This document shows, piece by piece, positions 1,956-58,825 of a DNA stretch of 64,000 nt. The stretch spans positions 1,922,001 to 1,986,000 of the forward strand of contig OZ361261.1 in the NCBI GenBank assembly GCA_977018835.1, in the 5' to 3' direction. The notes beneath the pieces were generated by a model that was given only the letters and a program-made list of their open reading frames with translations, had not been told where the DNA came from and ran no database searches. Positions within the stretch are counted from its first letter, which is position 1. Every line of letters starts with the position of its first letter. The position numbers and the translations under genes are program-made. The DNA comes from Minutocellus sp. GHC0000111. Taxonomy: Eukaryota.

Positions 1956-2220
1956 TCTGCCCAGAAAGACACTATTACACATGCACTATTACACATACGT
2001 CGTATATTGACATAATTAATATAAATAGAAGAATACATGTATCGACACCATGGAATTTGGCTTCTACTAGCTGGCTAGACTACATGTAGAAAGTCTATAT
2101 GAAGATATCGTACATGCACCGTAGGATAGGAGGGGACTCGCTATATCCTGTTGTTGTCCTCGTGTGCATTTCAAAATGTTAATTCGGTCACGAAGGTGAG
2201 AGCCCTGCACGTAAGATCGG

Positions 2221-2660
2221 CTAGTCGTTGCGGCTGACTGGGTAAGGTCCCACAATGCCTTTGCAGCTTTTATCGCCGTCCTCATTGATCTCTAGGAGTT
2301 TGTTTGCGTGTTGGGCAGACATATTCTCGTTGGGATGACGGTCGTCTCGGAACAGAGCCAAGGCGTCGGCCGAGTCACGTCCTTGCCACACAGCTCTGTC
2401 GAAGTCGTATAGGCATAGACTGCGGTCCGATGCGATGACGCGGATCTCATCATTGAGGCGCTTCATTGTCTCCATGTATTTAAGGTTAATGGAGGAGGGA
2501 GTGGTCTGCAGGTGAATCTGTGTGCTATTGCTCGTCCTGCACAGGAAAACATCATCCAAACGTCCTTCGATTCTCTCCCGGAAGGCAGAAGAAGATTCTT
2601 TTGTGTTCTCAACAAAGCCAGGGACAACATCCCAGCCTCTGGTACAAAAACCACGTGCAC
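2221..2660 (-). pseudogene. 5'-truncated SGNH-hydrolase-like fragment
   Basis: Open frame ...RGWDVVP...RLNDEIRVIASDRSLCLYDFDRAVW...FRDDRHPNE resembles the SGNH C-terminal half (DxxHP block). No start or N-terminal half is evident. Confidence 0.35.
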
Positions 2661-2953
2661 GGTTTTTCGTTGATTTCGAACGAAGCTCCTTGCAGTTTTT
2701 GCTCTTTCTTGCGCCGAGTCCTCCTAAGTTGTCAACTTACACCTGGTCAACCGGTGGTTCGGGGGCGGCCGACACAAGACGTGCGTCGTTTCATCCCATT
2801 GCCAGCCTGCATCGCCAACACTCAAAAAACATGAAACACAACTTGACTGCATGCTTTGTCCACGTTATTTTTTTCGAAGCAATGAGGCCCTTCTTTTCTT
2901 TCGAAACACGTGGCACAACGACGCCGCCTCCAAGTGAACGTAAGAGGCCTGGT

Positions 2954-3028
2954 GTAGGCCTACTAGGCCTACGTACCTACTAGGCTAGGTAGCTACGTAG
3001 TAGGCTAGTACATAGGCCTACTACGTAG
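2954..3028. repeat. Stacked TA-palindrome-TA tract (putative excision-footprint array)
   Basis: ta-ggcc-ta-c-ta-ggcc-ta-cg-ta-cc-ta-c-ta-ggc-ta-gg-ta-gc-ta-cg-ta-g-ta-ggc-ta-g-ta-ca-ta-ggcc-ta-c-ta-cg-ta. Confidence 0.7.
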
Positions 3029-4836: not shown

Positions 4837-5873
4837 CTAATACCCAAAGTCCTTCAGTGCCTTTTTTAGCTCCTTTGCAGTAAAGTTTCCAAGGTAATAC
4901 TGATGGTAGAGACCGATGAGCATTTTATCATTGTTTTCCTTTGCTTTCTCGAATGACGAACACCTCTCGCGGTCCTCGCTATTTCTTTCGTCGTTCGCAT
5001 TTTTGTGCGCCCTCAAAATGCCCTCAAGATTATCCTTGCTCAGCTCTCCCTGGTAAAACAACTTCCAAAGATTTTTCATTGCTACCTGATGGCCGCCTTC
5101 TGCAGCAATCACCCAGTGTCGGATGGCTAGGTCTTCATTGTTACTCTTAAAGTCGACCACCCCGAAACAGAACCAAGCAGGAGTATTTCCCCCTTTACCG
5201 CCTTTATATAAAACTCACGAGCCTTGTCCAAATCTTGTATGACGCCCAACCCCCCAGACTCATAAACACGTCCAAGGAACGCCATGGCCTGGGCAGAACC
5301 CAATTCGGCGGCGCGGATATGGAGCTCCAGCGCCTTAGACTCGTCTTTGGGCAGACCATTGGTGCCATCCCGATAACTGTTTGCGATACTAAAATAGGCT
5401 TTGCAGTCGTCTTTCTCCGTTCTTAGAAGAAGTTGCTTTACATAGTCATCCTCATCACAATACGGCGTCCTACAAAAAGCACAGGACTCCTTCACCGGCG
5501 GCTCCTCCTTCTTCGCCCTCTTTGAGTTGATGATCCTCACAGCTCGACGACTCTCGTTAACACAGGCTCTGCAAATCAGCATCCCGCAGCAGGGATAGTA
5601 TATACTTTGATCGTTCGCTATAGGTAACGGAATCATGCACACTGGACAGTCCTCCGGGGGAGGGCCGGGCTTCCAAAGGTCGGGGTCGTTCGCCACAAGC
5701 ACATCGGCATTCGGTCGTGTCTCATTTTCCTTCTTATGCTCCCCTTCGGTTTCCCCGGATACACTCATCGAAGCCACCTCATCAGCCGCCGCAGCCAACG
5801 CCGAGGATTCTTCATCCGCCATTTTGGCGCCAGTGCCTGGCAAGGCAGCAGTATCCGTCGTTTCCTTCGTCAT
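4837..5873 (-). CDS. Sel1-repeat protein with N-terminal RING-like Zn finger; 1-nt frameshift in G-run ~5189-5193
   Basis: EDCPVC..YYPCCG..ICRAC..CAFCR followed by Sel1 repeats (GLPKDESKALELHIRAAELG). Adding one G joins to ...VKGGNTPAWFCFGVVDFK...HWVIAAEGG. Confidence 0.85.
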
Positions 5874-6027
5874 TATTGCTTCTCCACTTGACTTGCGGTC
5901 GGAAGAAATGAGATGAGACTTACTTGAGACTTGCCAAGATTATATGGGGGCATGTGGGATTTAGGGGATAAAATGGGGACGAAAACCATATCTTCAGGCA
6001 GATGGCTTTATTGCCGCAAGAGCAACG

Positions 6028-7158
6028 ATGCCCAAGGAACGAAAGGATACCGCGCCGACTGCCCAGGAGGAGGATGCGACAGAAGTGTCTCCACACGCTC
6101 ATGAGGGTGGTGGTGAGATTACGGCGGCGGCCGATCAGCTTGCGGCGGCGACTCTTGCCGATCATGATGAGGCCGGTTCAGGCATGTCGGAAACTCAACA
6201 AGAAGGAGTAGCAGAATTGCACGATTCTTTGTTGGACCCCGAGCTTTGGAAGCCTCATCCGCCGACGGAGGATTGTCCAGTGTGTTTGGTTCCGCTGCCT
6301 CTAGAAAATATGGAGACGGCGTACAACTCCTGTTGTGGCAAAACGGTATGTGTTGCGTGCAAGCACGAGAGCGTTCGAGCCCTGAGAATAACAAATAGAA
6401 AGAGGGAAAAGAAGGAGCTGCCTCCCCTAGACGCATCCTGTGCCTTCTGCAGAGAACCGGTATATAAAGATGATTTAGAATTGATCGAGCGGATGGAGAA
6501 GAGAGTTGCCAAGGGCGATGTCGAGGCCATTCTCTCGATGGCGCTCTGTTGCCAAGACGGGCTGAAAGGCTTTCCAAAAGATGAGGCGAAAGGCAAGGAG
6601 CTGCTCGAAAAGGCCGCTGATATGGGTTGCGCAAAAGCCGTGCATCAAATCGGCTACTCCTACATTAAGGGTACTCACGGTTTTCCAAGAGATGGGAAGA
6701 GAAGCATAGGGTATTTCGTGAATGGAGTGGAGATGGGCAACACTTCTTCTCGATGTGCCCTTGCTGCGATTTTGGCTGATAAAGGAAATTATTATCTTGC
6801 TAACAAACATTTACGTCTCGCAGCAGAGGCCGGGGACGAGAATGCAGTAAAACAACTCTGGCAACATTTCTCAGATGGGAAATTGAGCAAAAAGGATCTC
6901 GAAGAGATATTAAGAACTCACCAAGCGGCCTACAACGAAATGGATAGCGAGGATCGACAAAGATTTGATGCTCGTAACGAAGCTTTGACTGGAAATGATA
7001 AAATTTTGAAAGGTCTCTACGGAAGCTATTATTTTGGATACACCAATGCAGAACAGCTAAGGGGGGTATTGAAGATGCATCAAAAGGGGTGTGGGTTAGA
7101 AGAGATTCGGGAATTCCTCAGAAAATGTGGTGTCACTGATACAATTGTAAATAAATGA
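6028..7158 (+). CDS. Sel1-repeat protein with RING-like Zn finger (paralog of the divergent neighbour)
   Basis: Intact 376-aa ORF with DPELWKP..EDCPVC..CCGK..CAFCR and Sel1 repeats. Collinear similarity with 4837..5873. Confidence 0.88.
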   Translation: MPKERKDTAPTAQEEDATEVSPHAHEGGGEITAAADQLAAATLADHDEAGSGMSETQQEGVAELHDSLLDPELWKPHPPTEDCPVCLVPLPLENMETAYNSCCGKTVCVACKHESVRALRITNRKREKKELPPLDASCAFCREPVYKDDLELIERMEKRVAKGDVEAILSMALCCQDGLKGFPKDEAKGKELLEKAADMGCAKAVHQIGYSYIKGTHGFPRDGKRSIGYFVNGVEMGNTSSRCALAAILADKGNYYLANKHLRLAAEAGDENAVKQLWQHFSDGKLSKKDLEEILRTHQAAYNEMDSEDRQRFDARNEALTGNDKILKGLYGSYYFGYTNAEQLRGVLKMHQKGCGLEEIREFLRKCGVTDTIVNK

Positions 7159-10265: not shown

Positions 10266-13200
10266 ATGCGCTTCATCGCGGCGGCCCTCACCGTCCTCCT
10301 CGTGGCGGAGACCGTCCAGGCGTTCGTTCCGGCCTCTCCCTCCGTGGTTTCTCTTTCCGCCTTTTCTGCCAGTTCCAGCGCCCTGTCGGCCACGTACAAG
10401 CTGGGCGAGAACGATCCCAACGACGTCAGCATCCCGTACGATGCCGCCGCCCGTCTGGCCTACGACGAGTGGACCAAATCCTACAACAAACCGTACGACG
10501 CCGCCCGGTACGAAACCTTCAAGGCCAACTACGAGGCGCTGACCGTGGCCAACGTCAAGGCCGCCAAGGCCGCCCGCGAGGCCGGCAGCGACGAACCCCC
10601 CAAGAAGTTGGACCTGAACGAGTACGCCGACATGACCGCCGAGGAGTACATGGCCATGCAGAACGGGGGGGCGGCCAGTAGTACTGGTGGTACCACCGCC
10701 CTCAAGTCGGAGTCCACTGAAGAGGAAAACAGCACGGGAGATGTGCTGGGTCAGGCCGTCGAGGCCGCCGGACTGCAGAACGATGCCAGCTCCGCGTTGG
10801 CCGAGGCGGCCGATGCTCTCGCCGAGGAGGAGGAGGTGCGTTCATTTGGCTTGACTTTGCGTGCACTTTTGAGGGATGTTGATGGGTAGAGTTGGCTTTG
10901 ATTTGGTTGGTGGGGAAAGGAAGTACATGGGCTTAGGCTGATTATGGATCAATGTGGAAGTTGGAAAAGGAGATGAAGGCAAGAAATTGAACTGCAAGGA
11001 ACGAACGAATTAGCATTGACTGCTGCATGTGACTTGTTCGTTCAGGCCTGATGGATGGGTATCCTGGATGCTCATTTGCATTTGCCGGACAATATCTGAA
11101 GATCAATTCATGAAGTGATTTGGTTGGGCCGAATCAATGCATGTTGGGATGTCGAGGTTTTCGTCATTGGCATCACTTATTTCTACTCTGCATCTCAAGC
11201 AAGTATCTGACCCATACACATCATATCATTTCCTCTTACTTCACTTCACTCCTACATCCCATCACAACAGGCTCTCGCCAAGGCCCTTGGTCTGGAGAGC
11301 GTCGAAGAGCTCGAGGTGGCCCTCGATTCCCTCGAGGGCATCGCCGAGGATGGCGGCGAGCTGGATCCCGAGAATCTGTCCCGCGAGGCCCGCGTCCGTT
11401 CCGCGTATCTGGACTGGTGCAAGGAGTTCGACAAGCAGCCCGACGAGGCCCGCTTCCCCCAATTCTCCTCCAACTACCTCGCCATGGAGGCCTACGCCAA
11501 CGAGAATGGCAAGGAGATGACATTGAACAAGTTTGCCGACTGCACCGAGGAGGAGTACGTTCAGATCACCACCGGCAAGGCTCCCGAGCCCAAGGCCGAG
11601 CCGGAGCCCGAGCCCGAGCTGGCCGCCGCTTCTGCTGCTGCTCCCGTGGAGGAGGCCAAGTTGGAAGACGGCATTGATATCAGCATTCCGTACGATGCTG
11701 CTGCCAAGTTGGCGTACGAGTCCTCGGACAAGTCCATGTCGTTTGATGACTTCAAGGTCGAGTATGAGGCCGAAGCCATTGCATTGGTCAAGTCCAAGCA
11801 GGGTGCTCCCGCCCCCGCTCCGGTGGCCAAGGCACCCGCCCCGGCCGCAAAGAAGGCTGCTCCGGTGGCCAAGAAGCCGGCCCCTGCTCCTGCTAAGAAG
11901 GAACCGGAACCCGAGGTGGATACCAAGACACGTCGGGCGCAGCAGGAGAAGGCTGCGGAGAAGCTCCGTGCGGACAACGAGGCGGCTGCTATCGCTGCTG
12001 TCAAGGCCGCTGCCGAGGCTGAGGCTGCCCAGATTGCTAAGCGACGTGCTCTCGATGAAAAGGCGGCTGAGTTGGAGAGGCAAAAGGCCGCCGAGGCAGC
12101 TGAGAAGATTGCCAAGAAGCAGGCCGAGAGAGGTTCTACTATTGTTATTCCTCGGAGGGAGCCTGTTAAGCCCACTCCGCCCCCTCCTGTTGCCGAGGAG
12201 AAGAAGCCTGCTGGAGTTTTGGGTATGTTTGCCAAGCCTGCTGCTCCCAAGGTTGCTGTCAAGAAGCCCGCTGCTCCCAAGGTTGCTGTCAAGAAGCCCG
12301 TCGCTCCTCCTCCTCCTCCCGCTGCCGCGAAGAAGGAGCCTGCTGCCGGAGGTCTGTTCGGTATGTTTGGCGGAGATGCACCCAAGCCCACTGCTAAGAA
12401 GGCCACTCCTCCTCCCAAGGCTCCTGTGAAGAAGGCTGCTCCTGCTCCTGCCCCCGCCAAGGCCGCTGCTCCCGCGCCCGCTTTCCCCTTCTTCGGAGGA
12501 GCTGCCAAGCCCGCTGCTCCCAAGAAGGCCGCCCCCACCCCTGCGCCAAAGGGTAAGTTGTATCGGTGTCGTTGATACATCTCCTTGATATCGTCGCCTT
12601 TTTTGCTTTCATATATCTAATTTTTGTATACCCCCTACCGATCGTTCTGATATTGTAGCACCAGTCAAGGCCGTGCCCAAGGTCACTTCGGAGGATCCTG
12701 TCACCGATGCATTCTCGGCTTTCTTTGGTTCCAAAGCCAAGCCTGCCGCAAAGAAGGCTACCCCTCCTCCTCCTGCTCCAGTACCTGCTCCCAAGCCGGT
12801 ATCTCAAAAGTCTGCTACATTCTCTCTGTTTGGCAACGCCGCACCGAAGAAGGCTGCTGCTCCTGCGCCTGCTCCCGCCAAGGTCGCTCCTGCTGGGCCT
12901 ACCCCAGCGCAGATTGCCGCTGAACGCAAGGCAGCCGCCGAGGCTAAGCGCCAGGAGGCTCTTGCTGCCGCCCAAGCTCGTAAGGTGGAACAGCAGCGAG
13001 TGGCCGCCGAGAGAAAGGCTGCCGCCGAGGCCAAGCGCCAGGAGGCTATCGCTAAGAGGGAGGAACAGGCCCGTATTGCTCAGGAGAAGAGAGCTGCCGC
13101 CGCCGCTGCCGCACAGGCCAAGCGCGAACAGGCTCTCGCTGCCGCAAAGGCTAGAAAGGCCGCTGCTTCTGCTCCTGCCCCCGCTCCTAAGCCCGCGCCA

Positions 13201-14136
13201 GTCAAGAAGTCGCCTACCTTCTCTCTGTTTGGCAATGCTCCTAAGCCTACTCCTCCTCCCGCTCCGGTACAGGCACCCGCCCCGGTTGCGAAAAAGCCCG
13301 CTCCATTCTCGTTCTTCGGCGCTCCAAAGCCTGCTGCCAAGGCACCCGCTCCGGCTCCTCCTGCCCTGAAGGCCCCTGTGAAGCGTTCTCCTACCATCTC
13401 GCTCTTTGGCAATGGCCCCAAGCCCGCTGCAGCAAAGCCTGCTGCTCCTGCTCAGGCCCTTCCCAAGGTCACTTCTGCCCCGAAGGGTGTGCCGACCATT
13501 GTTGGATTCCGAAAGCTCCGAGATGGAAGCGTTACTGGAAAGATCTACGGATCTCCTAGCTTTGAGGATGGCGAGCAACTCACCACCTCGCCCATAACCT
13601 CTGGAACTGTCGCTAACGGCAATCTTGTCCAGACTGGATCTGGTAGCCGGTACTTCTTGAGCGCTACCAAGCCTGGCGGTGCTGCCGCTGCCGCCAAGCC
13701 GGCTGGAGGAGGGTTCTTTGGCAAGCCCGCTGCCAAGAAGGTCGCGCCTCCTCCGGCTGCCGCCGCCAAGCCCGCTCCTGTGAAGCGATCGCCCACTATC
13801 TCTCTCTTTGGCAACGCTGCCCCGAAGAAGGCCGCTCCGGCTCCTCCGGCACCGACCCCCGCTCCCGTCAAGAAGTCCCCAACCTTCTCCCTCTTTGGAA
13901 AGCCCGCTGCCGCACCGAAGAAGAACGGCGCCGCACCGGCCGCTTCCGTTGCTGATGCCAATATTCCTGTCCTCAAAAACTGGGTTCAGAATCCGGATGG
14001 CAGCCTAACGGGCAATGTCAGCAACACCAAGTCGTTCCGTGCTGGTACTGAGATCACGACGTCTCCTGTCCGACGAGGGGCCAAGGCTGGCACTGTTGTG
14101 GCCACTAGCTCTGGCAGCAAATACAAGCTTATGTAA
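10266..14136 (+). CDS. Large plastid-targeted multi-repeat protein (I29 propeptide-inhibitor-like domains, Pro/Ala/Lys-rich linker, C-terminal beta repeats); exons ~10266-10835, 11271-12552, 12659-14136
   Basis: Signal peptide VQA-FV. GT-AG introns restore the frame (EEE|ALAK, PK|APVK). Two 'W.K..K....R...F..NY....N......LN.(Y/F)AD.T.EEY' units, two 'SIPYDAAA.LAY' units and two 'DGS.TG....F..G...TTSP......V.T.SGS.Y.L' units. Confidence 0.85.
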
Positions 14137-17908: not shown

Positions 17909-19121
17909 ATGAGCAAAAAAATGACGGCCGCAATCCCGCAGTCAACACCGCAGACAGAGTTGCGGTGCAGGACGCCCTCTGGCTGAACTGCTCGTCCGTC
18001 TTCGCAGAAAGGAACTTCATTACTACAATTTCATCGGCAACAACAACGACTCCTTGATGAATGTGTTGGGATGCAGTCCCATCACGTGCGGCGCCGTCAT
18101 GCACACTGCGGGCATCTTGGGTTTGAAGAAGAAGAAACACTATGACGACGACGTGTTTTTTGTGAGGACAGACAACCAGAATGGATGGGATGAAATGGCA
18201 TCAAGACACTGCCTTGCCGACGACGTTCAGCGAACCCCATGCAAAAGAGCATGTTTGTTCGCCTCGGCTCTGTCAATCCTCGTGCAGCCGACGCTCTCCA
18301 TGATGATGGATGGATGGCTTTCGACATGGTCACGGTCGAGCAACAACTTCGCCTCGAAATGCCGCCGCCGCGGCTCAATTTGACGAAGGCATGCAATGCA
18401 TTCCTCAAGTCGGTCGCACCACACATGTCGGTGGGACATGCGGCGATGGACTACGAAATCAACAGGCAGATGTTGCTCGAGGCCCAGAAGTTCCCTGGTG
18501 GGTGCAATGGCCAGGACGATGGGTGGGACAATGACGACGATGTTGGGACGGTGGGCACCCTGACCACGACGGAGGCCGGCGAGATCAGTGAGGACGATGA
18601 CGACGAAGACGAGGACTGTGTGCCCTGTTGTGAGAGGACGAAGCTGACATTGCAAGAGAGGACGCCACACATGAAGCATGCATGCAGCAGCACTTTGTGA
18701 GAAGAATCGTCAGAAGCACGGTGATGGCGAGCCAGAGATGGGAGCTGTCGATGATGCCGAGGATGACGATGCCCCTCACTTCCATTTCCTGAAAAAGGCC
18801 GGCATTGAGGCGGCCGACTCAGGTAAAATAAGGGCAGTGCTGGCAGAATGCTGGAGAGCTTTATCTGTTAATGTTTCTGATGGCAACAACAAGAAGAAAC
18901 CAAGGACAACAGAGTTCATCCACCACAACACCTCCACCAAAGGAACTCTCCTAGAGCACAATCGCGAGGAAGATGGCATGACGGATGACGACATCAAAGA
19001 GCTCTGCAAAGCTTGCTCTAATTTGCTCCACACTCTTGACACAATGTGTTCCAGGTTTCTGAAATGGCACATGAAGTGGGATGATGAGGCAAAGGAACTG
19101 ATGACAAGCGCCAACAAATGA
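17909..19121 (+). pseudogene. Degenerate, frameshifted repeat-derived ORF (probable transposable-element remnant), TpA-depleted
   Basis: Several overlapping ORF pieces with frameshifts. A second copy of part of it lies at 40510-40776. Almost no Tyr codons, with excess Cys/His. Confidence 0.55.
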
Positions 19122-20172
19122 TCATGATGGCCACCGATGGAGATGAGGATGTAGAGATGGGAGCAGGGCATGTATAAAATTAGAAAATGAAATTACACTG
19201 CTACTACACAATGACAAATGAATTGCATGGTCCAACTTTTACAAACAGCATCGCGATTGAGCAAAAAAGCAAGTAAATTGTGCACCCAAACAAACACATC
19301 ACGTCCTTCTTAACTCACCCATTTTTATCTCCCAGACCAAAAAGTCCCTTTGTCGGGTTGATTGTTGCATAAACTTATCCCAATACTATCTGTTTCTCCT
19401 CGGGCGCAAAATTGTTGTCGGAATTCCGGGAGGTCGAGTGGGGATGCGATCGGTCGGGATGATCAGCGAGAGTCGGTCATGCGGGGGGTGCGGCGCAATC
19501 CCGGCAGTTCATCATCAACAACAACGTGGGAAAGTACCAGAGGGTCTGGGGCATCACAACGGGAGCACGACGAGCACAAAGACGGAGCAATGGCACCACC
19601 CCAGAGAAACGAACGGCCGACAGATGATGATGGTGGAGGAAAAGTGGGCCGATGGTTCGTGGCGTTGATGCGCAGCGGAGGCCAATCTGAGGATGTGCAG
19701 TGAGCTTCAACTACATCCAAACATGATATAATGAATGCGTATTTGGTACGAAAATATAGTTATACGCCGGCGCAACGCCGACGGACCACCATGGTGTTGG
19801 ACGGTCAAAGAATGGGTGACGAACGAGATTGGGTTTTGGTGGGTTTCTTCGTGACGTGTTCGTCTTCTGCCGAAAAACGCTTCATCCGAAACAAGACGAG
19901 ATGGTGGGGCTGTGTGATCAAGCAAGATGCGATAAAATCTGTCCGTCAACCGGACACAACCGATCTGTCCTTCAACCGGAACCACCACAGACTCAGTACG
20001 AGTAGGTCATACGAGGTCAGATTCGCGAGAAATCGAGCGCCCGGTTTTTGACTGCTTTCGAGGGGATTGAAAAGCGCCTCGAAGAATAGTCATGCTGAAA
20101 TATTTAAGAAAATGGCTATTTTTACTCTAATTTTGATTTATCTTCATGTGAAACAATAATTCGGATATAAGT

Positions 20173-20620
20173 TTAGATTTCAGCGGCTGTAATCAAATGG
20201 TTCGTGCGACGCGACGGTTCGGCCTCCATCTCGTCTTCATCTTGAACGATGGCATGATGCTCGCCTCGGATCGGCAGTACGATGCATTCGTCCCGGATCT
20301 CGCACCACAGCCAATCCGGGATGAGTTTGAGCTTCTTTAGCTCCCGCTTCACGCCGTTGAACTTGTAGATGAAGGTAACTGAGGAGTGGAACATCTCCGC
20401 GGCCTTGTCGTACACCGATTCAGTTATTGCCACGACATCATCCATGTCGAGGGGCATGTTCTCGGCCCTTATCGCCCGGCAGACGAGTCGACTGACGACA
20501 TTGAGGAGCATGTGCTTCTCAAAATCCTCGGGCCCGTCAATCTTGAGAGTTTTCTCCTGGTCAATGATGATGGCCAAGACAGCGGTGAGCATGTGTTCAA
20601 TCCATTTGTGTCGGGCGGAA
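20173..20620 (-). CDS. Unknown helical protein fragment on the antisense strand inside element 1
   Basis: Part of ORF 20173..20790. KWIEHMLTAVLAIIIDQEK...FIYKFNGVKRELKKLKLIPDWLWCEIRDE has natural protein-like composition and ends near the left TIR. Confidence 0.4.
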
Positions 20621-22111
20621 GTCGAAGCTGAGCATTTCGATGACGCGATCGGCATACTTGGACCGGTATACTGCTTCCCAACGAGTGCCGATGATTCATC
20701 TGATTCGGCCGCCTTCCGTTCTGTCATCGACGATCTTGCAACGGCGACCCGGCGGCATACTGCACCATGTCTCTTTGCAATAATTGCCAAGTGCAGGGAG
20801 CAGGCAAAGGTGGACTATTCGGTGCTGTCCAGCGCAGAGCATGGTGCACGATTTTCGGGATGGATGAAGGCGTATGGTGCTCTACCTGCATCTGAGAAGG
20901 CGATGTGGGAGATGAAGAGGAGATCTCATCTGGCTATGCAGCCACACATTCGAGATGTTATTGTTGATGCTCTGATACGAAATCCTCGGGAATCTTGGCG
21001 GGAGCTGGAGGTTGATGTCAACTTTTGGTGTTCCTACTCGGCAATACGGCGGTGGATAATGTCGCGGGAGGGGTTCCGGTACTATGCCGAAAGGATCATC
21101 CCTCTCCTTACTACCCATCAGATGGAGAAACATTTGGTATTTGCGCGGAAATTCCGAAACAATTGGGGGCTCGGCGGTGGCAAGTTTCTCCTTATTATGT
21201 TCGATGAGAAGTGGTTTTGGGGCTTGGTTCTTCGATCGTATGCCAAGCAAGTTGCAGAATTGGGTATTGATCCTCGGTCCTTCTCGGCATATCACCGAAA
21301 TCACATCAACAAGTGCATGGTGGTGGCTGTCACTGCCTTGGCTTTTATTGACAGCATTGAGAATGGCGGCATTGCGTTCAAGCTTGGACGTTTTCGGGCT
21401 CAGGCGCATAAAATTGCGAGGCAGATGGTAAGGGAGGCGGTGCGGCAGGCAGATGGTAGAATCAAATATTGCGGCCCGGTGGTTCGGAAGAAAGACGATC
21501 TATACCTTGTGGATTGCGCGGTGACTGGATGCAGCCATGGCACCCTTGATAATCCCAAGTTCCCACTGAAAGCTTTATTTGAGAACAAGATGTTTCCGGA
21601 TGTTGAGGCTTTGGTCGGACCTGGTGGAAAGTTTGAAGGCTATGTCCCTATTTTTCAGGGCGACAATGCTGGGCCCCATGCCGAGACTGAATTTGTGGAA
21701 TATGTGGAAGGATACTGTCGGGACAAGGGATGGCGTTGGGAACCTCAGGCCCCGCAAATGCCCCATATGAATGTTCTTGATCTGTCTGTTTTCCCTTGCA
21801 TGTCAAAGCGGCATACAATGTTGAGCCGCGATCGGGAGGGGCTGAAGGTTTTGACAGAAGATCAGACTTGGGATGCAGCGGAGGAAGTTTGGATGGGGCT
21901 GGAAAACTGGAAGATCGCATCGGCATACATCCAGGCTCATAGAATTGCAAAGAAGGTAATCGTTGCAAAAGGCAACAATGATTTTCTTGGAAACGGTGAA
22001 GGCATTCATGTTGGGGTGCGAACGGATTTCAGGCCGACTGAAAATGGCATGGTTCGGATAGATGGGAAAATTATCGCTCCTCCTCCTGCTGATCCAACCA
22101 TGGATAATTAG
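20369..22111 (+). CDS. Mariner-like transposase, DD38D, with HMG-box-like and HTH-like N-terminal regions (true start uncertain)
   Basis: FDEKWF / FQGDNAGPH / QAPQMPHMNVLDLSVF correspond to the DEKWF / QQDNA.PH / QPPNSPDLNVLDLGFF blocks of plant-type mariners. 38 residues lie between the 2nd and 3rd Asp. Confidence 0.9.
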   Translation: MKVTEEWNISAALSYTDSVIATTSSMSRGMFSALIARQTSRLTTLRSMCFSKSSGPSILRVFSWSMMMAKTAVSMCSIHLCRAEVEAEHFDDAIGILGPVYCFPTSADDSSDSAAFRSVIDDLATATRRHTAPCLFAIIAKCREQAKVDYSVLSSAEHGARFSGWMKAYGALPASEKAMWEMKRRSHLAMQPHIRDVIVDALIRNPRESWRELEVDVNFWCSYSAIRRWIMSREGFRYYAERIIPLLTTHQMEKHLVFARKFRNNWGLGGGKFLLIMFDEKWFWGLVLRSYAKQVAELGIDPRSFSAYHRNHINKCMVVAVTALAFIDSIENGGIAFKLGRFRAQAHKIARQMVREAVRQADGRIKYCGPVVRKKDDLYLVDCAVTGCSHGTLDNPKFPLKALFENKMFPDVEALVGPGGKFEGYVPIFQGDNAGPHAETEFVEYVEGYCRDKGWRWEPQAPQMPHMNVLDLSVFPCMSKRHTMLSRDREGLKVLTEDQTWDAAEEVWMGLENWKIASAYIQAHRIAKKVIVAKGNNDFLGNGEGIHVGVRTDFRPTENGMVRIDGKIIAPPPADPTMDN

Positions 22112-22356
22112 TCCTGCGGTGCTTTTAAGTTATGTTATGTTTAAAATAATACTAGATTATTTAGATTCGAGCTATATTTGTGCTACTACACACACATGCC
22201 GTACATGCATGTGTAGTGCTCTCTTGTCAGTTTTGATGGTTCCGGCTTTACATGCATGTGTCCGTGTCCGGGTTGCGGACCCAAAAATCGACATTTTTTG
22301 GTCCCGGCCCTGCGCTCGATTTCTCGCGAAACGGACTTGTAGGATTCCTATGAACA

Positions 22357-35023: not shown

Positions 35024-35772
35024 TGCACTACACACAAGGAGAGATTGATATGATGGGCGGTGAGAGAAATAAAGCGAACTACATTTACAACAAGAAGAAC
35101 CAAATGAATAATGATATCACCCGATCCCCAACCAACCACCAAAGTCAAGAGAATCAACAACAGAATCTAGGAAAAGCGATTAATTTGCCACGACGAATCG
35201 AATCAATCAACCTGGATATAGATCTTGGAGCTGTACCAGGTTATTATACATGTATATATTGATCTAGATCTAGCTCTGCTGTAGCTAGCTAGGCACAAAT
35301 AAAAGAATAGATGTGCAAACAAGCAGCCTGTACATGTAAAATATTGATAGTCAGGACGTAAGTGATGCACAATGACCATCGGGACGGGGGGCGTCTAGCT
35401 AGGAATTCCTATTTGACTGACTTACATGAATGCACCGGTACATGTACTACCTTTCCCGGTAGACCAGAGTTTATAGGCCTACTTACATACCGGTAAATCT
35501 ACATGTATCAATTCTACATGTACACGCGCGCTCTCCTCAATCCTTCGGCCTCGCCGCCTTTTCGCGACTTCCTCGTCTTGCTTCGTTCGCGCTCTCGCGC
35601 ACACGTTCGCTCCGTCCGCCGTCGCGTCGCATCGCTCGCATCGCATCGCGCGGGCGCGCTTTCGACATTCGTCATTGGCCTTTGTCATTTATTTTGAAGG
35701 CAGACAGCTTGCAAGCTGCTGTCTGCTGCTAACCTGCTGATTACCGTTATTGTTGTCTCTTGTCAGATTCAA

Positions 35773-38481: not shown

Positions 38482-40972
38482 ATGACCAGCGCCCGGCGCA
38501 GAACAAATCGCTCAGGAGGACATGGTGGCAGCACAGAGAGAACAATGAACGAAGGCCAATCTGCCGGTGCCATCTCCTCCGCACTCCAGCCCACCACCCT
38601 CAAAATCATTTGCGCCCTGGCTGGTTTTCTCCTGCACATGCGATCGACATGGAGATGTTACTTCCCCTACGACGACGGTGGGGGTGTGCGGAACAATCCC
38701 GATGTGCTCAACCAGTCCAACGCCAGCGGGTTGGGCGTCGGCGTCATGTCAAAATGGACCGAGGTGTTTCGCAACGATTTCTGGGGCACCAGCATTAGCA
38801 GCCCCCTCACACACAAGAGTTGTCGGCCGATTGTCATCATGAGCTTTCGGATCGACGCCATCATCACTAAATGGGTAGAACGAAACGTGCTGGGCGAAGC
38901 ATGGGTGGAACAAATGGAACACGATGCTGACATTGAGCATAAAGGGGCATGGATGTTCCACGTGACGAATGTTGTGCTTTGTGCACTGGTTTGGTATCTG
39001 GTGGTGGATGTCCTGCTGATGCCAGTCGCCAAGGCGGCAGCTGAAGGATTCATATCAACGCGACGCCAATCCATGAATACGTTGTCGAGGAGTCAATCAT
39101 TGGGAATCCTCTTGGCCGGCCTTTGGTTTGCATCCCACCCAGTCCACGTTGAATGTGTTGCTCAGATTGTCGGAAGAGCGGAGACACTTGCTGCCTTGTT
39201 CTGTCTCGTTGGCACAAAATGCTACAATGTTGCTAAAACGAGTGATAACGTTTTGTCATCCTTGGGAGCCAACATTGGTCTCATGATATCGCTGTTTCTC
39301 GCGTGTCTCTGCAAGGAAACTGCGTGCGTCTTGCCAATTGTTCTTATCGGAACCGACATTGCCGTAGCTGTCTTGGCTCCCTCAAACATAAATGTCAAGG
39401 ACCACATCTGGACCAAGCCATCGTTTCCAACTCTATCATCCATCAGTGCCCTGAGCGTGACGGTTGGCTACCTTGCCTTTCGATCATGGCTCTTTGAGGG
39501 CCGTCAAGATCTGTCACCGCAAAACATTTTGATGTGCGACAACTTTGTTCTGCATTTATCAGGGATGCCAAAGTTGATGACGGCATTGTGTGTTCAAGCC
39601 AAGCATGTACAACTGTTACTCTGGCCCGATGAAGCATCGTCCGATTATTCTCTGGGGGTTGTTGATCCAATTTTCACTTGGTCAGACTCGAACATGGTTT
39701 TATTTTATGGTGTCGCGATGGGCCTAACACTTGCAATTGGATCGGCGTTACAAACATTGATGCAGCGTGGGAATACAGCGCTAGTTCAAGCAATTGGCTG
39801 GACTTTCGCCCCGTTAGTTCCAGCTTCGCATGTTGTGACAATAGGGACGCCCATGGCAGAACGGTTGCTGTTTACGCCGAGCATCGGGGTTGCCATTTTG
39901 ATTTGTTATTTATTTGCGGTTGCGGAGGAACCGGGAGCGCGCTTTGCATCGGGTCGCCAAAGAATGCCGATACAGACCATCATTCTCATTGCAATGGTGG
40001 CAGCATCGACTGCTCGTTTTTCTATTATGACATATCAGAGAGTTCCAGAGTGGGAAGATTCGAAGGCTGTATTTGAAGCTGATGTCAAAAAGTTCCCACA
40101 GTCAGTCAAGTTGAACATGGCACTTGCTCGGGGGTGGTGGGGTGAGACCGCCGAGGAGTCAGCCAAAAGTTATGCGCATGCAATGGCAGCGCAAGAAGTA
40201 GTTGATTTGTATGGAGATGGTTTGAAAGATACGCCATATGTTATCGGGCTCCCGATGATGGCCTTTCAGCATGCACGGACCTCTGCATGGCCAGATGCAG
40301 ACTTGGGCAAAGCTCTTTCATTGGCAAAAAAAATTGAAGAACTAGATGCGCAGCGAAAGATTAGTGCTGACGACATGGCATTCGTCTTGTCCGCGAGGGG
40401 GCAGGAATTTCTCAAATTAGGACTGCCGAAGCAAGAGAAGCAGCTTCTCATTGAAGCCGAGGCTGCATTTCGAGAGGCTGAACGAAATGATGGCACCAAA
40501 AGAGCGCCATGGCTGAACTACTCGTCCGTCTTCGCAGAAAGGAACTTCATTACTACAATTTCATCGGCAACAACAACGACTCCTTGATGAATGTGTTGGG
40601 ATGCAGTCCCATCATGTACGGCGCCGTCATGCACACTGCGGGCATCTTGGGTTTGAAGAAGAAGAAACACGAAGACTGCGATGTGTTTTTTGTGAGAGAG
40701 GACAGACAACCAGAGTGGATGGGATGAAATGGCATCAAGACACTGCCTTGCCGACGACGTTCAGCGAACCCCATGCTGATGTGAGTGATTATGCAAACTT
40801 AATGGGCGAACTTGCGGGATTTAAGAACACAGATGTATCAGCTGCCTCAAAATGGGGCACGGAAGCAAAACGGGCTCTGAGTACAGTTCTATCGCATCCA
40901 GGGCTCCACGAGAAGCCCGGGCACGAGAAATTGTGGCAGACAATGTTGAGTTGGGTTGAATCAAATGTGTAA
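38482..40972 (+). CDS. TMTC-like (DUF1736) protein O-mannosyltransferase, C-terminus interrupted by a captured ~265-bp fragment
   Basis: YDD...RNNP, FRNDFWG, HKSCRP, FHVTNV, FASHPVHVECVAQIVGRAE, LCKET, SSDYS, AERLLFTPSIG, R..EW. The tail resumes after 40776 (ADVSDYAN...WVESNV*). Confidence 0.85.
40510..40776 (+). repeat. Dispersed duplicate of 17980-18242
   Basis: Near-identical sequence tggctgaact...cgaaccccatgc at both loci, with a few substitutions and one 4-nt indel. Confidence 0.95.
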
Positions 40973-41725
40973 AAAATATAAAAGGACAGCATTGCTGGGA
41001 ACTGTTCTATCTAGCTAGAAGCTTAGTCCCTTGGAGATTTGCTGCTGTAGTTGACTTGCTGATGATTTAGACCTACCTACATACGGGAAGCTTCCGGTGT
41101 GTAGTAGTACCTGGCAAGCAACTGAACTCTCCTCCGCGTTCGGTACGAGGTCGCGGACAGCAGTTTCAGGGACCCGGTTTTCGGGTCTTTGGGCAAAATC
41201 TCATAAAAATCAGCACAAACGCACGCAGCAAGCAGCATTTATTTGCCATCGTCCTGTCTTCAAGATGGCGGTGACGGCAGTGCCGATGGCATCCGCTTCA
41301 CGCAAGGGACAAGCGTGGTGTCTCCAGAACGGGTTGGTCCTTGACCTTGGACCGACTCGGAGACATCGATTTCATCTTCCCATGCCAGCGTCTGGCCGAT
41401 TCACCCCATCCATCGCCCCTCCCGACTTCTGCCAGTTTTTCCGATGACAACCGGTCACCTCCTCCACCTCCCGACCCCACCACCACCTCCCAAATGCATT
41501 GATTCAAGTAGCCATGTGGTTTGAGCTCCGACATCGGTCTCCATGGTCCCCACAATGGCGCATCTTATGCGGTCCGGGTGACCCCGCGCCAAAATCGAGC
41601 GGGCCAAAAAAATCATCACCCGCCCGGCGCGCCCTCCACTCAATGAAACCTTCCTCATTTCCAACCCACCCGACATACAAACTGTTGCTCTACTGCCACA
41701 AAATACTGCATCCAACACCATATTA

Positions 41726-43361
41726 ATGCAAATGGCTGTTGCTGCTGCTGCCACCGCAGCTGATGCGCCAGCATGTCGCCGCTCCCGTCGGTCCGGCAGC
41801 TCCATCCCATGCTTTGATTATTTTGTCCATCGGAGCGGCACCATCGATGCCTCTACGATTCGTGGCAAGTCTCCTGGGATGATCCAGACCATAGCGAACC
41901 GGGCATGGGCGGGCCTCTCACTTCAGAAACAGCAGGATGTCATGGAGCAAGCCCGAGAGGAGGAGCTGTGCTGTCCGAGCCAGACCGGTCCTGATCCGGC
42001 ACAAGATGTGCCGATTTCTCAAATTCAAATTGCTCGGCGCAATTCGTCATCCAACATCGCCGATGCCAGCCCTGAGCCGACGGTCGAGGACAATGCTGGT
42101 GTCGCTGCTCGTCCTGGTGATGATGACATCGAAGCTGGGGGCATCGCCGAGTCCATGGTGGTGGATGGAAGCGGCAACAGTGAAGAATCTGGCAATCCTG
42201 CCAGTGTCGGTGTTTCTGCTACCGGCACCGCCAATTCTGGTGGATCGACCGAGGAGAATTTGGATGTGCTGCTGGTTGAGGCCGAAGCGCAATGCAAAGC
42301 TGCAGAGGAGGCTTTGAAAGGGCTAAGGGACACCTTGAAACGAGAAAAGCGGAAGGATGAAAAGGCCATGGCCGATGCCGAGAAGAAAAGGAACAAAATG
42401 AAGGATGAGAACGGCAATTTACCGAATGCGAGTTCTCCTCGTGCATTGCGATGAGAAATGGTTCTGGGGTCTCGTCCTCCGAGCTTTTGCGAAGGCTTGC
42501 GAGGAAATCGGCGTGAAAAAGCGAGATTACGCGGCCTTTCACAGGAGCCACATCAACAAGGTCATGGCCATTGCATTTGTTGCCGCTGTCTTTGACGGTT
42601 CTCTTGAGAGTGGGTGCGAGGTTGTAAAACTGCCACTGGTACGAGCTCAAGCTCCTAAAATAGCGGAGCGAGCTCAGCACGAAGCAGTGTCACAGCCTGA
42701 TGGTTCAACACGGCACCCAAATACCAACCCCGATGGGACACCAAAGGAACCTCTTCGCCGGAAAGGAGAGTCGTTTCTTGTTGATTGTTGCGTTACTGGA
42801 TCGAACGAAGGCACCAAAAAGGATCCGAAATGCTCTTTGCTCCTCGTATTCAAGGAGACTATTTTCCCAGCGATTCTCAACCTTGTCGGTCCGGGCAAGC
42901 AATACGAAGATTGCCATGTTATTATCCAGGGCGACCAGGCCGGGCCTCACGAGGACGGAACCTTCACGCAATTTGTTACTAACTTCTGTGCTGAGCAAGG
43001 CTGGACGTGGCAGCCACAGGCACCGCAGATGCCTCACGCCAACGTCCTTGACTTGAGCGTGTTCCCCGCGATGAGCCGGCGGCACTCGGAATGGGCACGA
43101 AAAATGGTAGGCACCTCCGTCATTTCCACCGACCAGATCTGGGACACTGCCGAGGACGTTTACGATAGCATGCCTAACTGCAAAATTGCTTCGGCCTTCA
43201 TTCAGTACTGGAGGATAATGGGCCTGGTGATTAAGGCCGGTGGTAGCAATGAGTTTGTTGGAAGGTTGGGTGACGAAAACTTGCACACTGGAATTAGGAT
43301 CGACTTCAACGAAACGGCCAAGGGGATGGAGCCCTCAGCTCGTCATCCTTCTAATAAATAG
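41726..43361 (+). pseudogene. Mariner-like DD38D transposase, frameshifted or internally deleted at ~42420
   Basis: ORF 41726..42454 (HMG-box-like segment + coiled coil) overlaps ORF 42405..43361 (CDEKWF, QGDQAGPH, QAPQMPHANVLDLSVF). The HTH/linker region present in element 1 is missing. Confidence 0.85.
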
Positions 43362-43456
43362 ATAGTGTTAATGTCTTTACACATGTATTAAATAAATGTT
43401 ACACGTCTACAAATTATTTATAGATCTACATGTAAGATGCAGCAGCATTGGTTTGT

Positions 43457-44590
43457 TTATGTCACGGTGGGCTTCTTTGTTCTTCTATTTCTACCGGTAT
43501 TCTTTTTTGCCTCCTTGGCCTTCTTATGATCATTAGAAAGCCACACAGCGTGGAGGGACTGACGAATCTTTCCGCGCTTCACACCATATGCATCGGCAAG
43601 TTTATTGTCAGTGAGGTCAGGGTGAGCAGTTGGTTGTTTACTCCCATCCTCATATCCCAACTTATATGCATCTAATGCAATCTTGTCAGTAGATAATGCA
43701 ATAGAGAATTCTATTGTCTTGTTATCATACAATCCGAGTTCTCTGCTTCTCCACCCTTTCGGGTAGGCACCACGACCCTCTCTTACTTGGCGATCGACTT
43801 CGATCATGCCTAGCACTGTGGTGACCGCGACCTCGCTACCCCAACCAGGAACTTGTTTGAAGGGGAGGTAGACCCCTTTCTCTTTTCTTCTTGGTTCGGG
43901 CCTCTGACTACATGTGGGTGACTTGTAGTTCTTTATATCTTGTGGTAGTGGTGCTTCTCCGTACGTCAAAAAGCACGCAAGCCTCCGATGTTCCTCAACC
44001 TCTCGTTCAATCTGTCGTTCGGTTGGTTCGGTTGGAGGCAAGGGCTCCAAGATGGTAGGGGATGACAATTGAAGGTTGCTGAACGACGGGCATGAGCGGC
44101 TTGGGGTAAGAGCATACTGAGTATGAACTGACATTGGACTTGTTACCATGGGCGTGGCGGAGGGAAGGTCGAATGAGCTCACGGGCTTTCTCCTCTCGCC
44201 GCTTGGCTTTGCGTCGGCGGTTGCTATGCTCATCTCTGAGAATGAATCATCTTCATCAGAATGAGATGAAACGGTAGCGGTACCGCGAAAGTCGGCACGC
44301 AATATGTCATGATGCAAGTACTTCCTTGCTTGGGCTTGTTCGGCGGCGAAGCCATCCTCTTCGTTGTACTCGCGTCGATATTTCAACACACGAGGAGATG
44401 TGAGGTCTGACGATGCCGGTGGGACCCCTTGGTTGTCCTCCTCGTCATCGTTGTCCTTGTTCTCTCGATACCGCGGATGTTCCGGCGGAACGGAAGTTTC
44501 CTTCTCATGGCGCGAGGGGCTGAATGCAGTCGCCTCGGCGCATTTCGGTGGACGCGGTGGACTGAAGATGTGTCCCTTTGGAGTATCCAT
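43457..44590 (-). CDS. Unknown cargo/accessory protein inside element 2 (~377 aa; disordered N-half, folded C-half, basic NLS-like tail)
   Basis: Uninterrupted ORF from MDTPKG, lying entirely between the TIRs and convergent with the transposase. Confidence 0.7.
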   Translation of the reverse strand: MDTPKGHIFSPPRPPKCAEATAFSPSRHEKETSVPPEHPRYRENKDNDDEEDNQGVPPASSDLTSPRVLKYRREYNEEDGFAAEQAQARKYLHHDILRADFRGTATVSSHSDEDDSFSEMSIATADAKPSGERRKPVSSFDLPSATPMVTSPMSVHTQYALTPSRSCPSFSNLQLSSPTILEPLPPTEPTERQIEREVEEHRRLACFLTYGEAPLPQDIKNYKSPTCSQRPEPRRKEKGVYLPFKQVPGWGSEVAVTTVLGMIEVDRQVREGRGAYPKGWRSRELGLYDNKTIEFSIALSTDKIALDAYKLGYEDGSKQPTAHPDLTDNKLADAYGVKRGKIRQSLHAVWLSNDHKKAKEAKKNTGRNRRTKKPTVT

Positions 44591-44828
44591 GAGTATGGAA
44601 GCTTCTTGAAGCGCCAGTCGGCAGAAGTTGCCCAGTCTATTTGTGGTAATTGCTTGGAGGTCGGTTGTTGACGGATTTGTTTTGTTTTGCTTGCTTTGCC
44701 ACGTGTTTTTCAAGGTGGGCGCAAACCGCCGTGTCGGAAAGTCCAAAGACCCAAAAAACCGGGTCCCCGAAATTGCTGTCCCGGACCTCGTAGGAGACAC
44801 CCGGAGGATGTGATGACCTCGCCAAAAG

Positions 44829-44854
44829 TACGAGCTCGTACATGTAGGAATTCC
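44829..44854. repeat. Footprint array TA-CGAGCTCG-TA-CATG-TA-GGAATTCC
   Basis: The first unit equals the first 4 and last 4 nt of element 2 joined between two TAs. Confidence 0.75.
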
Positions 44855-44949
44855 GCCTGCAGCTGCGGCTTTCAACACAAGAAGGCTGATCCCCCGAGTA
44901 GACGACGATACGCCGGTTTGCCACCAATGGCCTCAGCGGAGCAAAGATA

Positions 44950-45598
44950 ATGACACCACAAACTCCTACGCAATGCGTTGATAGCGCAGTAGATGCGACG
45001 ACGCCAGCCGAGCGGCTTTCCACAGCGCTGAAGATGGCGCGAGCGACCATGATCGTCTACTCCTATGACAAGAGTGGCAATGACAAGGACATTGCCAATA
45101 ATGAACGCCTACAGGATAGTGCAATCAGCCAAAGCGTTGCATCAACGAGGGACTTGACCCTGGAGATGGAGTCGGCTGGTCTTGAAAGGCAGCGAGCACT
45201 TCGAGAAGCTCAAGATTTTCTTGCACTGGAAAATCGCCAGGATACAAACACGGAAGAGCAACGACAAGATATTCAGTGCGACGAAAGATGCGACAATAAC
45301 AAGCAGCGTGGAAGATTCTATCGAACCTTTTGATGTTCAGTCACTACTGGACGAGATTGCCGCATTGAAGAAATCCGTCAAGGAAGCCAATGAGGAAGTG
45401 ACGGAACTGAAATCAGCGCTGAACAGCTCATTGAATAATCCTGCAATTAAAGCGGACATGGACGCGAAGTCACCCGTCGACGAGGTGTTGTGTTCCAAGT
45501 CTACATGTGATACAACTCTTATTACTTGCAGTGTCCGCCATTATGATGAGTTCCAGTACGACCATGGAGAAAATGGAATGAGAACCGGCGCAGATTAG
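44950..45598 (+). CDS. Hypothetical coiled-coil protein; probable frameshift ~45285
   Basis: ORFs 44950..45333 and 45182..45598 join at an A-run. Heptad-like segments. Confidence 0.45.
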
Positions 45599-45831: not shown

Positions 45832-47438
45832 CTATCCCTTGTATTCCTTGAGTACATCGCCGGCAATCACAAGATGCTGAATCTCACTCGTGCCTTCGTA
45901 AATTTCTGTAATCCGAGCATCGCGATAATGTCTTCCGGCTGGCATATCCGAGACGTATCCCATCCCACCAAGGACTTGAATTGCTTGATGAGAGCACATG
46001 GTTGCTGCCTCGCTTGCTGCCAGCTTGGCCATGGCCGCTTCTCGAGTGTACTTTTCACCAGCGTCCTTGAGCATAGCCGCTCTCCACATGAGCAGTCGGG
46101 AAGAGTCGCGGGCTATAGACATGGCGCTAATCTTGTTCTGAATGGATTGAAAGGAGGCGATTGGCTTGCCGAATGCCTGGCGTTCAAGAGCGTAGTTGGC
46201 TGCGCAATCAATCGAGGCAGAAGCAATGCCCACAGCTTGACCGGCAACTCCAATGCGCCCTCCATCCAAGGTTTTCATGGCAATCTTGAAGCCATCGCCC
46301 TCCTTGCCAAGCAAACTATCAAGTGGAATGCGAACATTATCAAAGATGAGGTTGGAAGTTGACGAAGCACGGATGCCCAACTTGTCTTCCTTGGCGCCAA
46401 GAGAAAATCCCTCGGCATCAAGAGGCACGATAAAAGCCGAAATACCCTTGTGTTTCAGAGATTTATCGGTAGTGGCAAATATGACAGCCGCCGTAGATTC
46501 ATGAGCATTGGTAATCCATGCCTTGGTGCCGTTGATAATCCACTCACTTCCATCCTCCGACAGGGTGGCGGTTGTCGAGGCGGCGCCGGCATCACTACCA
46601 TTGCCAGGTTCCGATAGGCCGAAGCAGCCAATGTTGAGGGTTTCGTCGTCCTTAATTGGCTGCGCGTACGGGGTCACCCACTTCTCCTTCTGCTCGTGAG
46701 TTCCGAATGCCTGGATGGGCCACAGGTAGAGCGAATTGTGCGCGGACATGATGACGCCAGCAGATGCGCACCCACGGCTAATCTCCTCCATGGCGATGGC
46801 ATAGGCGAGAGCATCGAGCTCAGAGCCACCATACTCACCGGGGACGTTGATTCCCATCAGGCCAAGCTCGGCCTATTGGAAGCGAAAGAGCAAGTAGTGT
46901 GTCATCGAAATGTGTATCAATTGCATGTGTCAATTGCAGCGATGCAATTCAGCATTTCATGTGATGTGACGGAATGGAATGGAATGTGACAAGAGCAAGG
47001 AATGAGAAAGATGCAAAGAATGGCTTTTGTCAGTTGAATGGTGATAAAATGGGCACAGCTTGGCACAGCAAAGTCCTAACCTCTGAAACCGAACCGATGG
47101 CATGAAGATTTGCCAATCGGCGCACTTCAACGTTACGTGCGGTAACGCACCATATGAGTGATTGCCTCAGTGGGAAATGCATGTTTCTGGTCCCACTCGC
47201 CGGCGTTGGGCGCCAGCTCTTCGTTTGCAAAGTTGCGGCACATCTCGTAGATCATCTGATGCTCCTCAGGAAGCTGTGAGTGGGTGGTGTATTGGCGCTG
47301 ATTGGAAGGTAGGGAAACATTCGCCGATGACGAACCCGAACTCGTTGCTGCAACGGCCGGTGCCAGCTGCTTCGAGACGGCGGTTGAGATGGAGTAGCCG
47401 GCCCTCTTGGACAGGAGGGAAGCTGAACGGGAGAGCAT
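45832..47438 (-). CDS. ACADS: Short-chain acyl-CoA dehydrogenase, mitochondrial; intron 46873-47150
   Basis: [69 protein letters not shown]. Mitochondrial transit-like N-terminus. Confidence 0.93.
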
Positions 47439-48771: not shown

Positions 48772-48932
48772 TGTTGTCGCAGTGTGATGACGAGTGACGC
48801 TTGAAGATATCAGGTTATGAGTCAATAGCACTCTTTGACTGTCATCTTCAACTGGCTATGGCGCCTACCTAGGTACGCTTTGGCGTCTTGTTGGCCGCAG
48901 TGCTTTCTCCTCTGCAAGCAAATCAGGCAAAA

Positions 48933-52945: not shown

Positions 52946-53730
52946 CTGACTGGCTGACTGAGTGACGGATCTAGCTACGTAGCTACGTAGCTGCAAACAC
53001 AAAAAAATACACACCAATTTTACAATTGTAAATGCGACAAATAATGCTGTCTGTTTGGCTTCATGTAGATCGAGCTACATGTACATGTAGATCTACGTAC
53101 CGATAGCTCTAACTAGAGCATGCCGGGACAGGAGCTGCTGGATGTCTGGTCCGTTGAGTCGAGGAGCCCACCGACACCTGCAGGCGGCGAAGCAGCATTG
53201 AGGCACACACACAGAGGCGTGTGAGGATCGAGCAGGCCAGGCGATTCTCGGCGGAGCTGGTCGTCACGGTGTTTCTGGTGCCGGTGACCACTTTCCACAA
53301 CAAACATGTACCTGTATTTTTGGCCTCTCTTTCCCTCCTTTATGGCCTCTTTATTATTTACATGTATGTACAGGACCCTGAGACGGTACCTAGGTAGGCC
53401 TACAGCATGTAGGCCAGGATTGATTCCACCCCCCGTCTCTTGAACTTTCTTTTTTTGTGTTCGGGATCAAGATTCTGACCCCTATCGGCGCGGCCTTGCT
53501 TTCCTCGCAGTCTTGTTCTCGTCGAACGCGCGGCACCCCACAACACGGTGACTGCCCACAACCCCACAAGCCACGAGAATTCCCAGCGTCTAGGTCCTAG
53601 CTAGCTAGAAGCTACGTAGTACCGGTAGTGCCTGGTCGCGGTGAACAGATCAACCGATCGATTGCCCCCAGCCCAGACAAGCTTGAAAATGCATACGAGT
53701 AGTACCGTCTTGCAGGGCAGGAAGAAGCTG

Positions 53731-58681: not shown

Positions 58682-58825
58682 TTGCGTGCTTGTTAATTCG
58701 ATGTACCGTAGAGTGTAATATAAATAAAGACTACGTGGTTTCCTATCTTTCTTTTCCATATTCGTTCATCCATACACATACGAGTAGCAACTCTATCAAA
58801 ACTCAGTCAACTGACTATTCCTTTC

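Follow-up and report, generated by a model that had tools for sequence, protein, structure and literature searches.

The 12-letter palindrome TACGAGCTCGTA (TA-CGAG-CTCG-TA), which stands 39 nt past the last base of a transposon (element 2) in a 64,000-nt stretch of Minutocellus sp. DNA (the whole of which is called the window here), is very probably the excision scar of a CGAG-ended family of DD38D transposons, a copy of which inserted at a TA and was later cut out. This reading is adopted because the TA is duplicated relative to another allele and the letters between the two TAs are those of both element ends, because TACGAGCTCGTA recurs in loci chosen only by transposase homology, and because a second TA-duplicating indel is found at 48866. 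The features at and around the scar are:

44829-44840, no strand: TACGAGCTCGTA, the likely 4+4 excision scar.
44839-44846, no strand: TACATGTA, a scar-like word that shares a TA with TACGAGCTCGTA; 44841 is A in the other allele.
44845-44854, no strand: TAGGAATTCC, an incomplete copy of the scar-like word TAGGAATTCCTA.
44814-44821, plus strand: TGACCTCG, eight letters that match a family end, located 7 nt upstream of the scar in both alleles.
48866-48875, no strand: TA-CCT-AGG-TA (TACCTAGGTA), the second TA-duplicating indel, at which the window is 8 nt longer than the other allele.

The allele comparison employed the assembled contigs of five of the 22 runs (X1, X2, X3, X15, and X18), and these runs may include the window's own source, so that they are treated as other alleles and not as independent support. 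Ten letters are absent from 44828 in three of four runs (X15, X18, and X1), which carry A at 44841; specifically, the window allele has a second TA together with CGAG and CTCG, whereas the other allele has one TA. The fourth run, X2, keeps the window letters, with no differences over 44790-45039 (250 nt), and the unchanged presence of the scar there indicates that it is not an error of the window only. The site thus displays two signs of an excision footprint, namely a target site that is duplicated with respect to the unoccupied allele and inner letters that coincide with the ends of a resident family, in agreement with the sequence-only reading of this DNA, which had proposed that the word retains 4 nt from each end of the CGAG family. 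At 48866, X15, X18, and X1 lack eight letters, leaving TA, while X2 gives no coverage. Over 4215 nt, 22 differences separate the alleles; among the 12 of 16 indels listed, those at 44828 and 48866 are the only deletions longer than 2 nt, the remaining long one being a GGAAT repeat expansion. Both TA-duplicating indels have a substitution within 5 nt, and the one at 44841 implies that the event at the scar was not perfectly clean; raised mutation beside excision sites is reported for rice (PMC5023962). The related run X3, employed as an outgroup, is not alignable at the scar, skips the whole intergenic stretch, and gives no indel direction. In none of the contigs of the five runs is 44829 occupied by an element, contigs being prone to drop rare variants. 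The palindrome at 48866 also precedes a 2OG-Fe(II) oxygenase frame whose likely start is 48933, and it provides the stop of a 4-codon upstream frame from 48858, a stop that is absent in the other allele.

Within the window, TACGAGCTCGTA occurs only once, even when 1 mismatch is allowed (0.05 copies expected; 5 of 100 shuffles reach 1). The positions 44829-44854 stack three scar-like words with different inner ends and shared TAs, the third being a broken version of TAGGAATTCCTA, which is intact at 35400 and 47790. The site resembles a reused landing spot, and reused landing spots are reported for Stowaway sites (PMC1925063).

The family whose ends match the scar is represented in the window by element 2:

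41146-44790, plus strand: element 2, a 3645-nt, high-copy DD38D IS630/Tc1/mariner element with TIRs of about 36 nt.
41582-43361, plus strand: the element-2 transposase gene, in two frames (41582-42454 and 42402-43361).
43457-44590, minus strand: a convergent second ORF within element 2, with no Pfam match.

The borders that had been proposed for this element, TA-CGAG on the left and CTCG-TA on the right, are found at 41144-41149 and 44787-44792, and the footprint matching both of them does lie 39 nt downstream. Both ends start with CGAGGTC, the 38-nt arms (TA included) are 89% complementary, and the target TAs occupy 41144-41145 and 44791-44792. Contigs of X15 and X1 join 41142 to 44790, leaving one TA at the empty site, and in all four runs (X15, X18, X1, and X2) the left flank runs directly into 44790. 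An empty allele with one TA fixes the ends of the element and the duplication of TA on insertion, a character of ITm elements, as are the terminal inverted repeats seen in the arms of elements 1 and 2. The read depth over element 2 is about 12,300 against 114-136 in its flanks in X15 and about 21,200 against 258-277 in X18, i.e., some 80-110 times the flanks overall, none of which is a true copy number.

The transposase of element 2 is an in-frame internal-deletion form that lacks about 435 aa, including the HTH, and retains an intact DDD domain; moreover, the window copy of the gene is frameshifted and, at 42427, shorter than the common form by 8 nt. A 999-aa full-length relative, 97% identical to both frames, carries the HTH, is found on a contig whose length the other clusters share, and is likely the autonomous partner of element 2. 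Since the gene of element 2 is both frameshifted and devoid of the HTH, this full-length relative is the likely enzyme behind the scar, in place of the element-1 transposase that the sequence-only reading had put forward for an excision assay, a choice that is disfavoured because the closest relative of element 1 has a right end starting with CGAAG. The HTH-less transposase encoded by the abundant form of element 2 could be an inhibitor or inert. As to the convergent ORF, a C-terminal HTH-like stretch weakly matches N-terminal parts of the family transposases P0075, P0080, and P0086 (E values between 5e-6 and 2e-3, for a small database). The two element ends also appear fused, without a TA and sharing CG, in contigs of X15 (depth 377) and X1 (12.2) (ACCT-CG-AGGT; window 41146 and 44781-44790). 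This fusion may be a circle, a tandem (head-to-tail dimer), or an assembly hairpin, and it is what would be expected if excised ends annealed via their terminal CG.

The proteins of the family carry nearly invariant DEKWF, QGD, and NVLD motifs in alignments, present in both window proteins, from which the DDD/E catalytic triad is read; the window transposases have no Pfam DDE match and only a spurious one in the PDB. The second and third Asp are separated by 38 residues in both window proteins and in 82 of the 84 parsed (of 103 proteins), and, among 139 more distant representatives, by 38 residues in 38 of the 53 parsed, the others having 37-56. A Tc3-type HTH (PF01498), a further ITm character, is found in 20 of 26 aligned members, scoring above the cut-off in P0151 (32.6 vs 31.5) and below it in element 1 (26.3), and is missing from the deleted form in element 2. 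P0011, P0014, and P0083, also transposases of the family, have an HMG box at the N terminus (Pfam E values of 4e-15 and 6e-17 in two of them; the third is a precomputed match). Read depth and related protein clusters of 35, 74, and 69 members indicate that the CGAG-ended family is young and abundant. The only named homologues of the transposase are from Cylindrotheca and Nitzschia, and the viral contigs hold no relative of it. The literature searched, which does not include most subscription journals or Repbase, contains nothing on an algal DD38D family or on diatom excision footprints, the nearest texts dealing with Tigger for DD38D and with Kolobok for a diatom excision footprint or palindrome; provisionally, the DD38D family is apparently undescribed.

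The recurrence of the word was assessed in 22 metagenome loci (54,960 nt) selected by transposase homology only. Element ends, picked by eye in nine of them, start with CGAGGT in L001 (left), L003, L006 (both), L009, L011, and, with a query, L019, while others start with CGAAG (L001, right), CGATC (L002), or CGAGCTCC (L012 and L020, both queried); CGAG is therefore the start in most related loci with a pickable end. TACGAGCTCGTA is present in three copies, once in L009, 45 nt inside the right end of an element, and twice in L018, which also holds TACGAGCGTA and TATGAGCTCGTA, a 4+2 form and a C-to-T copy. These three copies are 3 of the 8 TA-N8-TA palindromes in the 22 loci, with none in 300 shuffles (p ~2e-4, per locus, against 256 possible words), which bears out the anticipated co-occurrence of word and family; conversely, the fact that only 2 of the 22 loci carry the word counts against the scar reading. 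The transposases of L009 and L018 differ from those of the window (44% and 54% identity), as does the palindrome vocabulary of L018, and both loci are thus likely to come from other organisms. In L018, positions 2150-3000 form a dense tract of TA-bounded palindromes, TATGCATA recurs 10 times over the locus as a whole, and the family transposase at 6001 is broken. The small element at 41-1831 of L021 is complete, its ends are of the CCC.CTCC type, and its frame encodes 511 aa; it is a distant relative (27%) whose motif SPDLNVLDLG we take to be plant-mariner-like.

Element 1 is the second DD38D element of the window and is bordered by words of its own:

20012-22339, plus strand: element 1, a 2328-nt DD38D element with TAs at 20010-20011 and 22340-22341 and a transposase frame at 20369-22111.
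22340-22350, no strand: TAGGATTCCTA, at the right target TA of element 1, a 3+4 version of the GGAA-type word.
19997-20009, plus strand: TACGAGTA followed by GGTCA, directly before element 1 and resembling a broken duplicate of its left end (19997-20019).

Its left end is CGAGGTCAG and its right end CAAGTCC, i.e., a CTTG-TA right border in place of CTCG-TA, with a 25-nt TIR core of 92%; the counterpart of this right end in L001, the closest locus to element 1, is CGAAGTCC. The CGAAG right end of L001 implies that the element-1 subfamily would leave an asymmetric word, and a symmetric one needs CGAG at both ends, which fits element 2 and not element 1. Element 1 is thus disfavoured as the maker of the symmetric word, and the asymmetric word predicted by the ends of its relative does not occur in the window.

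The half-word TACGAGTA has four copies in the window (19997, 53694, 58779, and 59088), with 0.36 expected in dinucleotide shuffles and 0.91 under an order-3 model (p 0.014 before correction for 136 words), and its reverse form TACTCGTA is absent from the window. The sequence-only reading had counted three of them as half-footprints, overlooking 59088. The copies at 53694 and 59088 are rejected as such, both lying within long reading frames (MHTSS.. and ..PYSYM..), and the one at 58779 is unsupported, since the two copies outside long ORFs are level with other non-palindromic TA-N4-TA words (52 of 120 such words seen there, 71 copies, maximum 3). What survives is the copy at 19997, the only one that stands out by position; this apparent broken duplicate is a possible half scar, and L001 has the end of element 1 without the 19997-20009 flank.

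Perfect TA-bounded palindromes are strongly enriched in the window, mainly outside long ORFs. Against an order-3 model, TAGCTA has 25 copies (4.5 expected), TACGTA 19 (4.3), TACATGTA 15 (0.6), TAGATCTA 10 (0.25), and TAGGCCTA 9 (0.18). The scan for TA-anchored elements with TIRs found none with GA, GG, CA, CCT, or GGAA ends in the window and gave three other pairs, of which two come from palindrome tracts and the third, with 5 mismatches in 20, spans 4907-7019. The proposed link between the palindrome tracts and an identifiable transposase is consequently retained in part, for TACGAGCTCGTA and perhaps TACGTA, and not for the common words of the tracts, which have other ends. Elsewhere in the window, a repeat of about 265 nt at 17980-18242 and 40510-40776 (96-99% identical, high read depth) suggests another mobile element end or fragment, 11211-14136 encodes a long Pro/Ala/Lys-rich repeat protein with recurring SPTFSLFG-like units, and the scan of 34 frames reveals HA repeats and DUF6824 among their domains, which, like the named transposase homologues, point to a eukaryotic and likely diatom source.

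The mechanism proposed for the scar begins with an insertion that duplicates the TA, as seen for the empty allele of element 2. The DD38D transposase responsible, which is likely the full-length 999-aa protein related to element 2, would then nick 4 nt inside each 5' end and at each 3' tip, so that CGAG 3' overhangs would remain on both flanks, and host end-joining would abut and fill both overhangs into a 4+4 palindrome. The retention of four letters from each end implies overhangs of at least 4 nt, and forms keeping five or six end letters are found neither in the window nor in the 22 loci, which makes 4 the simplest value. The cut about 4 nt inside the ends that the sequence-only reading had put forward is likely for the family, as the 4+4 retention fits it; the figure is drawn from the scars, and a deeper cut with trimming would yield the same product. 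A CGAGC-ended subfamily (the candidate ends CGAGCTCC of two loci), cutting 5-6 nt inside and annealing its overhangs, could also produce the same word. If donor-side ends annealed by the terminal CG, TACGTA would result, and this common word may derive in part from the same family. The other TA-bounded n+n palindromes would reflect the same repair habit in families with other ends, the indel being seen for them only at 48866, and element 2 would most likely have arrived separately at a TA-rich, repeatedly used spot.

A one-step local hop, in which the present element 2 was excised from 44829 and landed 39 nt away at 41146-44790, was part of the sequence-only reading and is rather unlikely. The window haplotype does carry element and scar together, both are missing from the contigs of X15, X18, and X1, and, of 985 TA sites outside ORFs, only 6 fall within 40 nt of the four element ends on their outer side (a post hoc count); local hopping is, moreover, general for cut-and-paste elements, though described over kb to Mb (PMC7827188). 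However, in a 646-nt contig of X2 (depth 5.6) the empty site of element 2 is joined to the scar. This contig may represent a genuine third haplotype or a mosaic made in assembly, the latter because contigs mix alleles (45935 vs 46085-46116) and the shared stretch is 41 nt. The scar in L009, 45 nt inside the end of an element, cannot be the donor site of that copy, and the three stacked words at 44829 have different inner ends. Scar-like words also cluster regardless of any hop, as 72 of 98 have another within 40 nt, against a mean of 37.7 and a maximum of 56 when TA sites are drawn at random 2000 times, overlapping words being counted separately.

The contrast between the alleles could have arisen with no transposon ever standing at this TA, through a templated insertion or hairpin-driven indel from double-strand-break repair or polymerase slippage, an account that is improbable. 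TGACCTCG, which carries CTCG and is present in both alleles, could act as a local template 7 nt upstream, the GTA repeats on both sides are such that a 10-nt loss between them would give the same allele contrast, and the neighbouring substitution lengthens the window-allele palindrome to 14 nt. Against this stand the recurrence of TACGAGCTCGTA in two unrelated family loci, the lack of pairing to prime fold-back copying from TGACCTCG, the lack of enrichment of that 8-mer across the window (4 seen vs 2.35 expected), and the folding of the scar region, no better than that of shuffles (z 0.29). Lower still is the probability that selection maintains TACGAGCTCGTA as a binding site for a protein, a role suggested for TACATGTA in promoters of Phytophthora: the word is palindromic, non-coding, and near gene ends, and TACATGTA is taken there as a factor site, the Tc1 footprint being noted and then set aside (PMC3520976), but TACGAGCTCGTA is present in one allele and absent, with the TA-duplication contrast, in another, is single-copy in the window, and in one locus lies inside a transposon. 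Some scars may nevertheless gain a later regulatory use.

The excision-scar reading has consequences beyond this site. Footprints are usually guessed from word counts, whereas TACGAGCTCGTA is linked to its family through a difference between alleles and through its recurrence in other carriers; the origin of abundant TA-bounded palindromes in algal non-coding DNA becomes directly testable, caution is advised in taking such palindromes as promoter motifs, the cut site can be predicted for a DD38D transposase family that is apparently undescribed, and there is a hint of end-joining that preserves unpaired overhangs of 4 nt in full. A broader joint reading, which we hold tentatively and with slightly more doubt than belief, is that algae harbour an undescribed ITm clade, with DD38D spacing, CGAG ends, and enzymes that reach 1000 aa and in some cases have an HMG box, whose members cut 4 nt inside their ends, and that diatom end-joining fully fills both unpaired overhangs, so that each ITm family would write its own TA-bounded palindrome, the stacked tracts would form a legible record of past jumps that is still segregating, and the "promoter motifs" enriched in stramenopiles, such as TACATGTA, would in part be scars.

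Among known systems, the plant mariner-like elements (PlantMar/DD39D: Osmar5, Ppmar2, Stowaway) share the TA duplication, the short TIRs, and the DDD enzyme, and the lengths of 2.3 and 3.6 kb found here agree with the short TIRs and 2-6 kb given for PlantMar (PMC7325037). Their footprints are 1-4 nt and likewise keep up to four element letters per end (PMC9632168, PMC1925063, and PMC4561436); they are presented there as varied, whereas the scars here are mostly symmetric and full-length. The present family differs in its spacing of 38 residues instead of 39 (82 of 84 parsed), in its likely diatom host, in proteins that reach 750-1000 aa, and in ends that start with CGAG, CGAA, or CGAT and not with CTCC, the TIR consensus quoted for rice Mariner being CTCCCTC (PMC4423477). 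Homology searches gave no named PlantMar sequence and the tree contains none; the family is set apart from PlantMar by its spacing and TIR consensus. Tc1 and Sleeping Beauty, in turn, share element-derived 3' overhangs and end-joining repair, the overhangs of Sleeping Beauty being 3 nt long and the Tc1 footprint taCATGta keeping both ends; they differ in retaining two or three letters against four here and in having DDE against DDD here, and the Tc1 footprint is called rare in C. elegans, whereas such words are abundant in the window (PMC3520976 and PMC7827188). The excision-scar mechanism is thus already known from plant mariners and Tc1, and the family that would employ it here is apparently undescribed.
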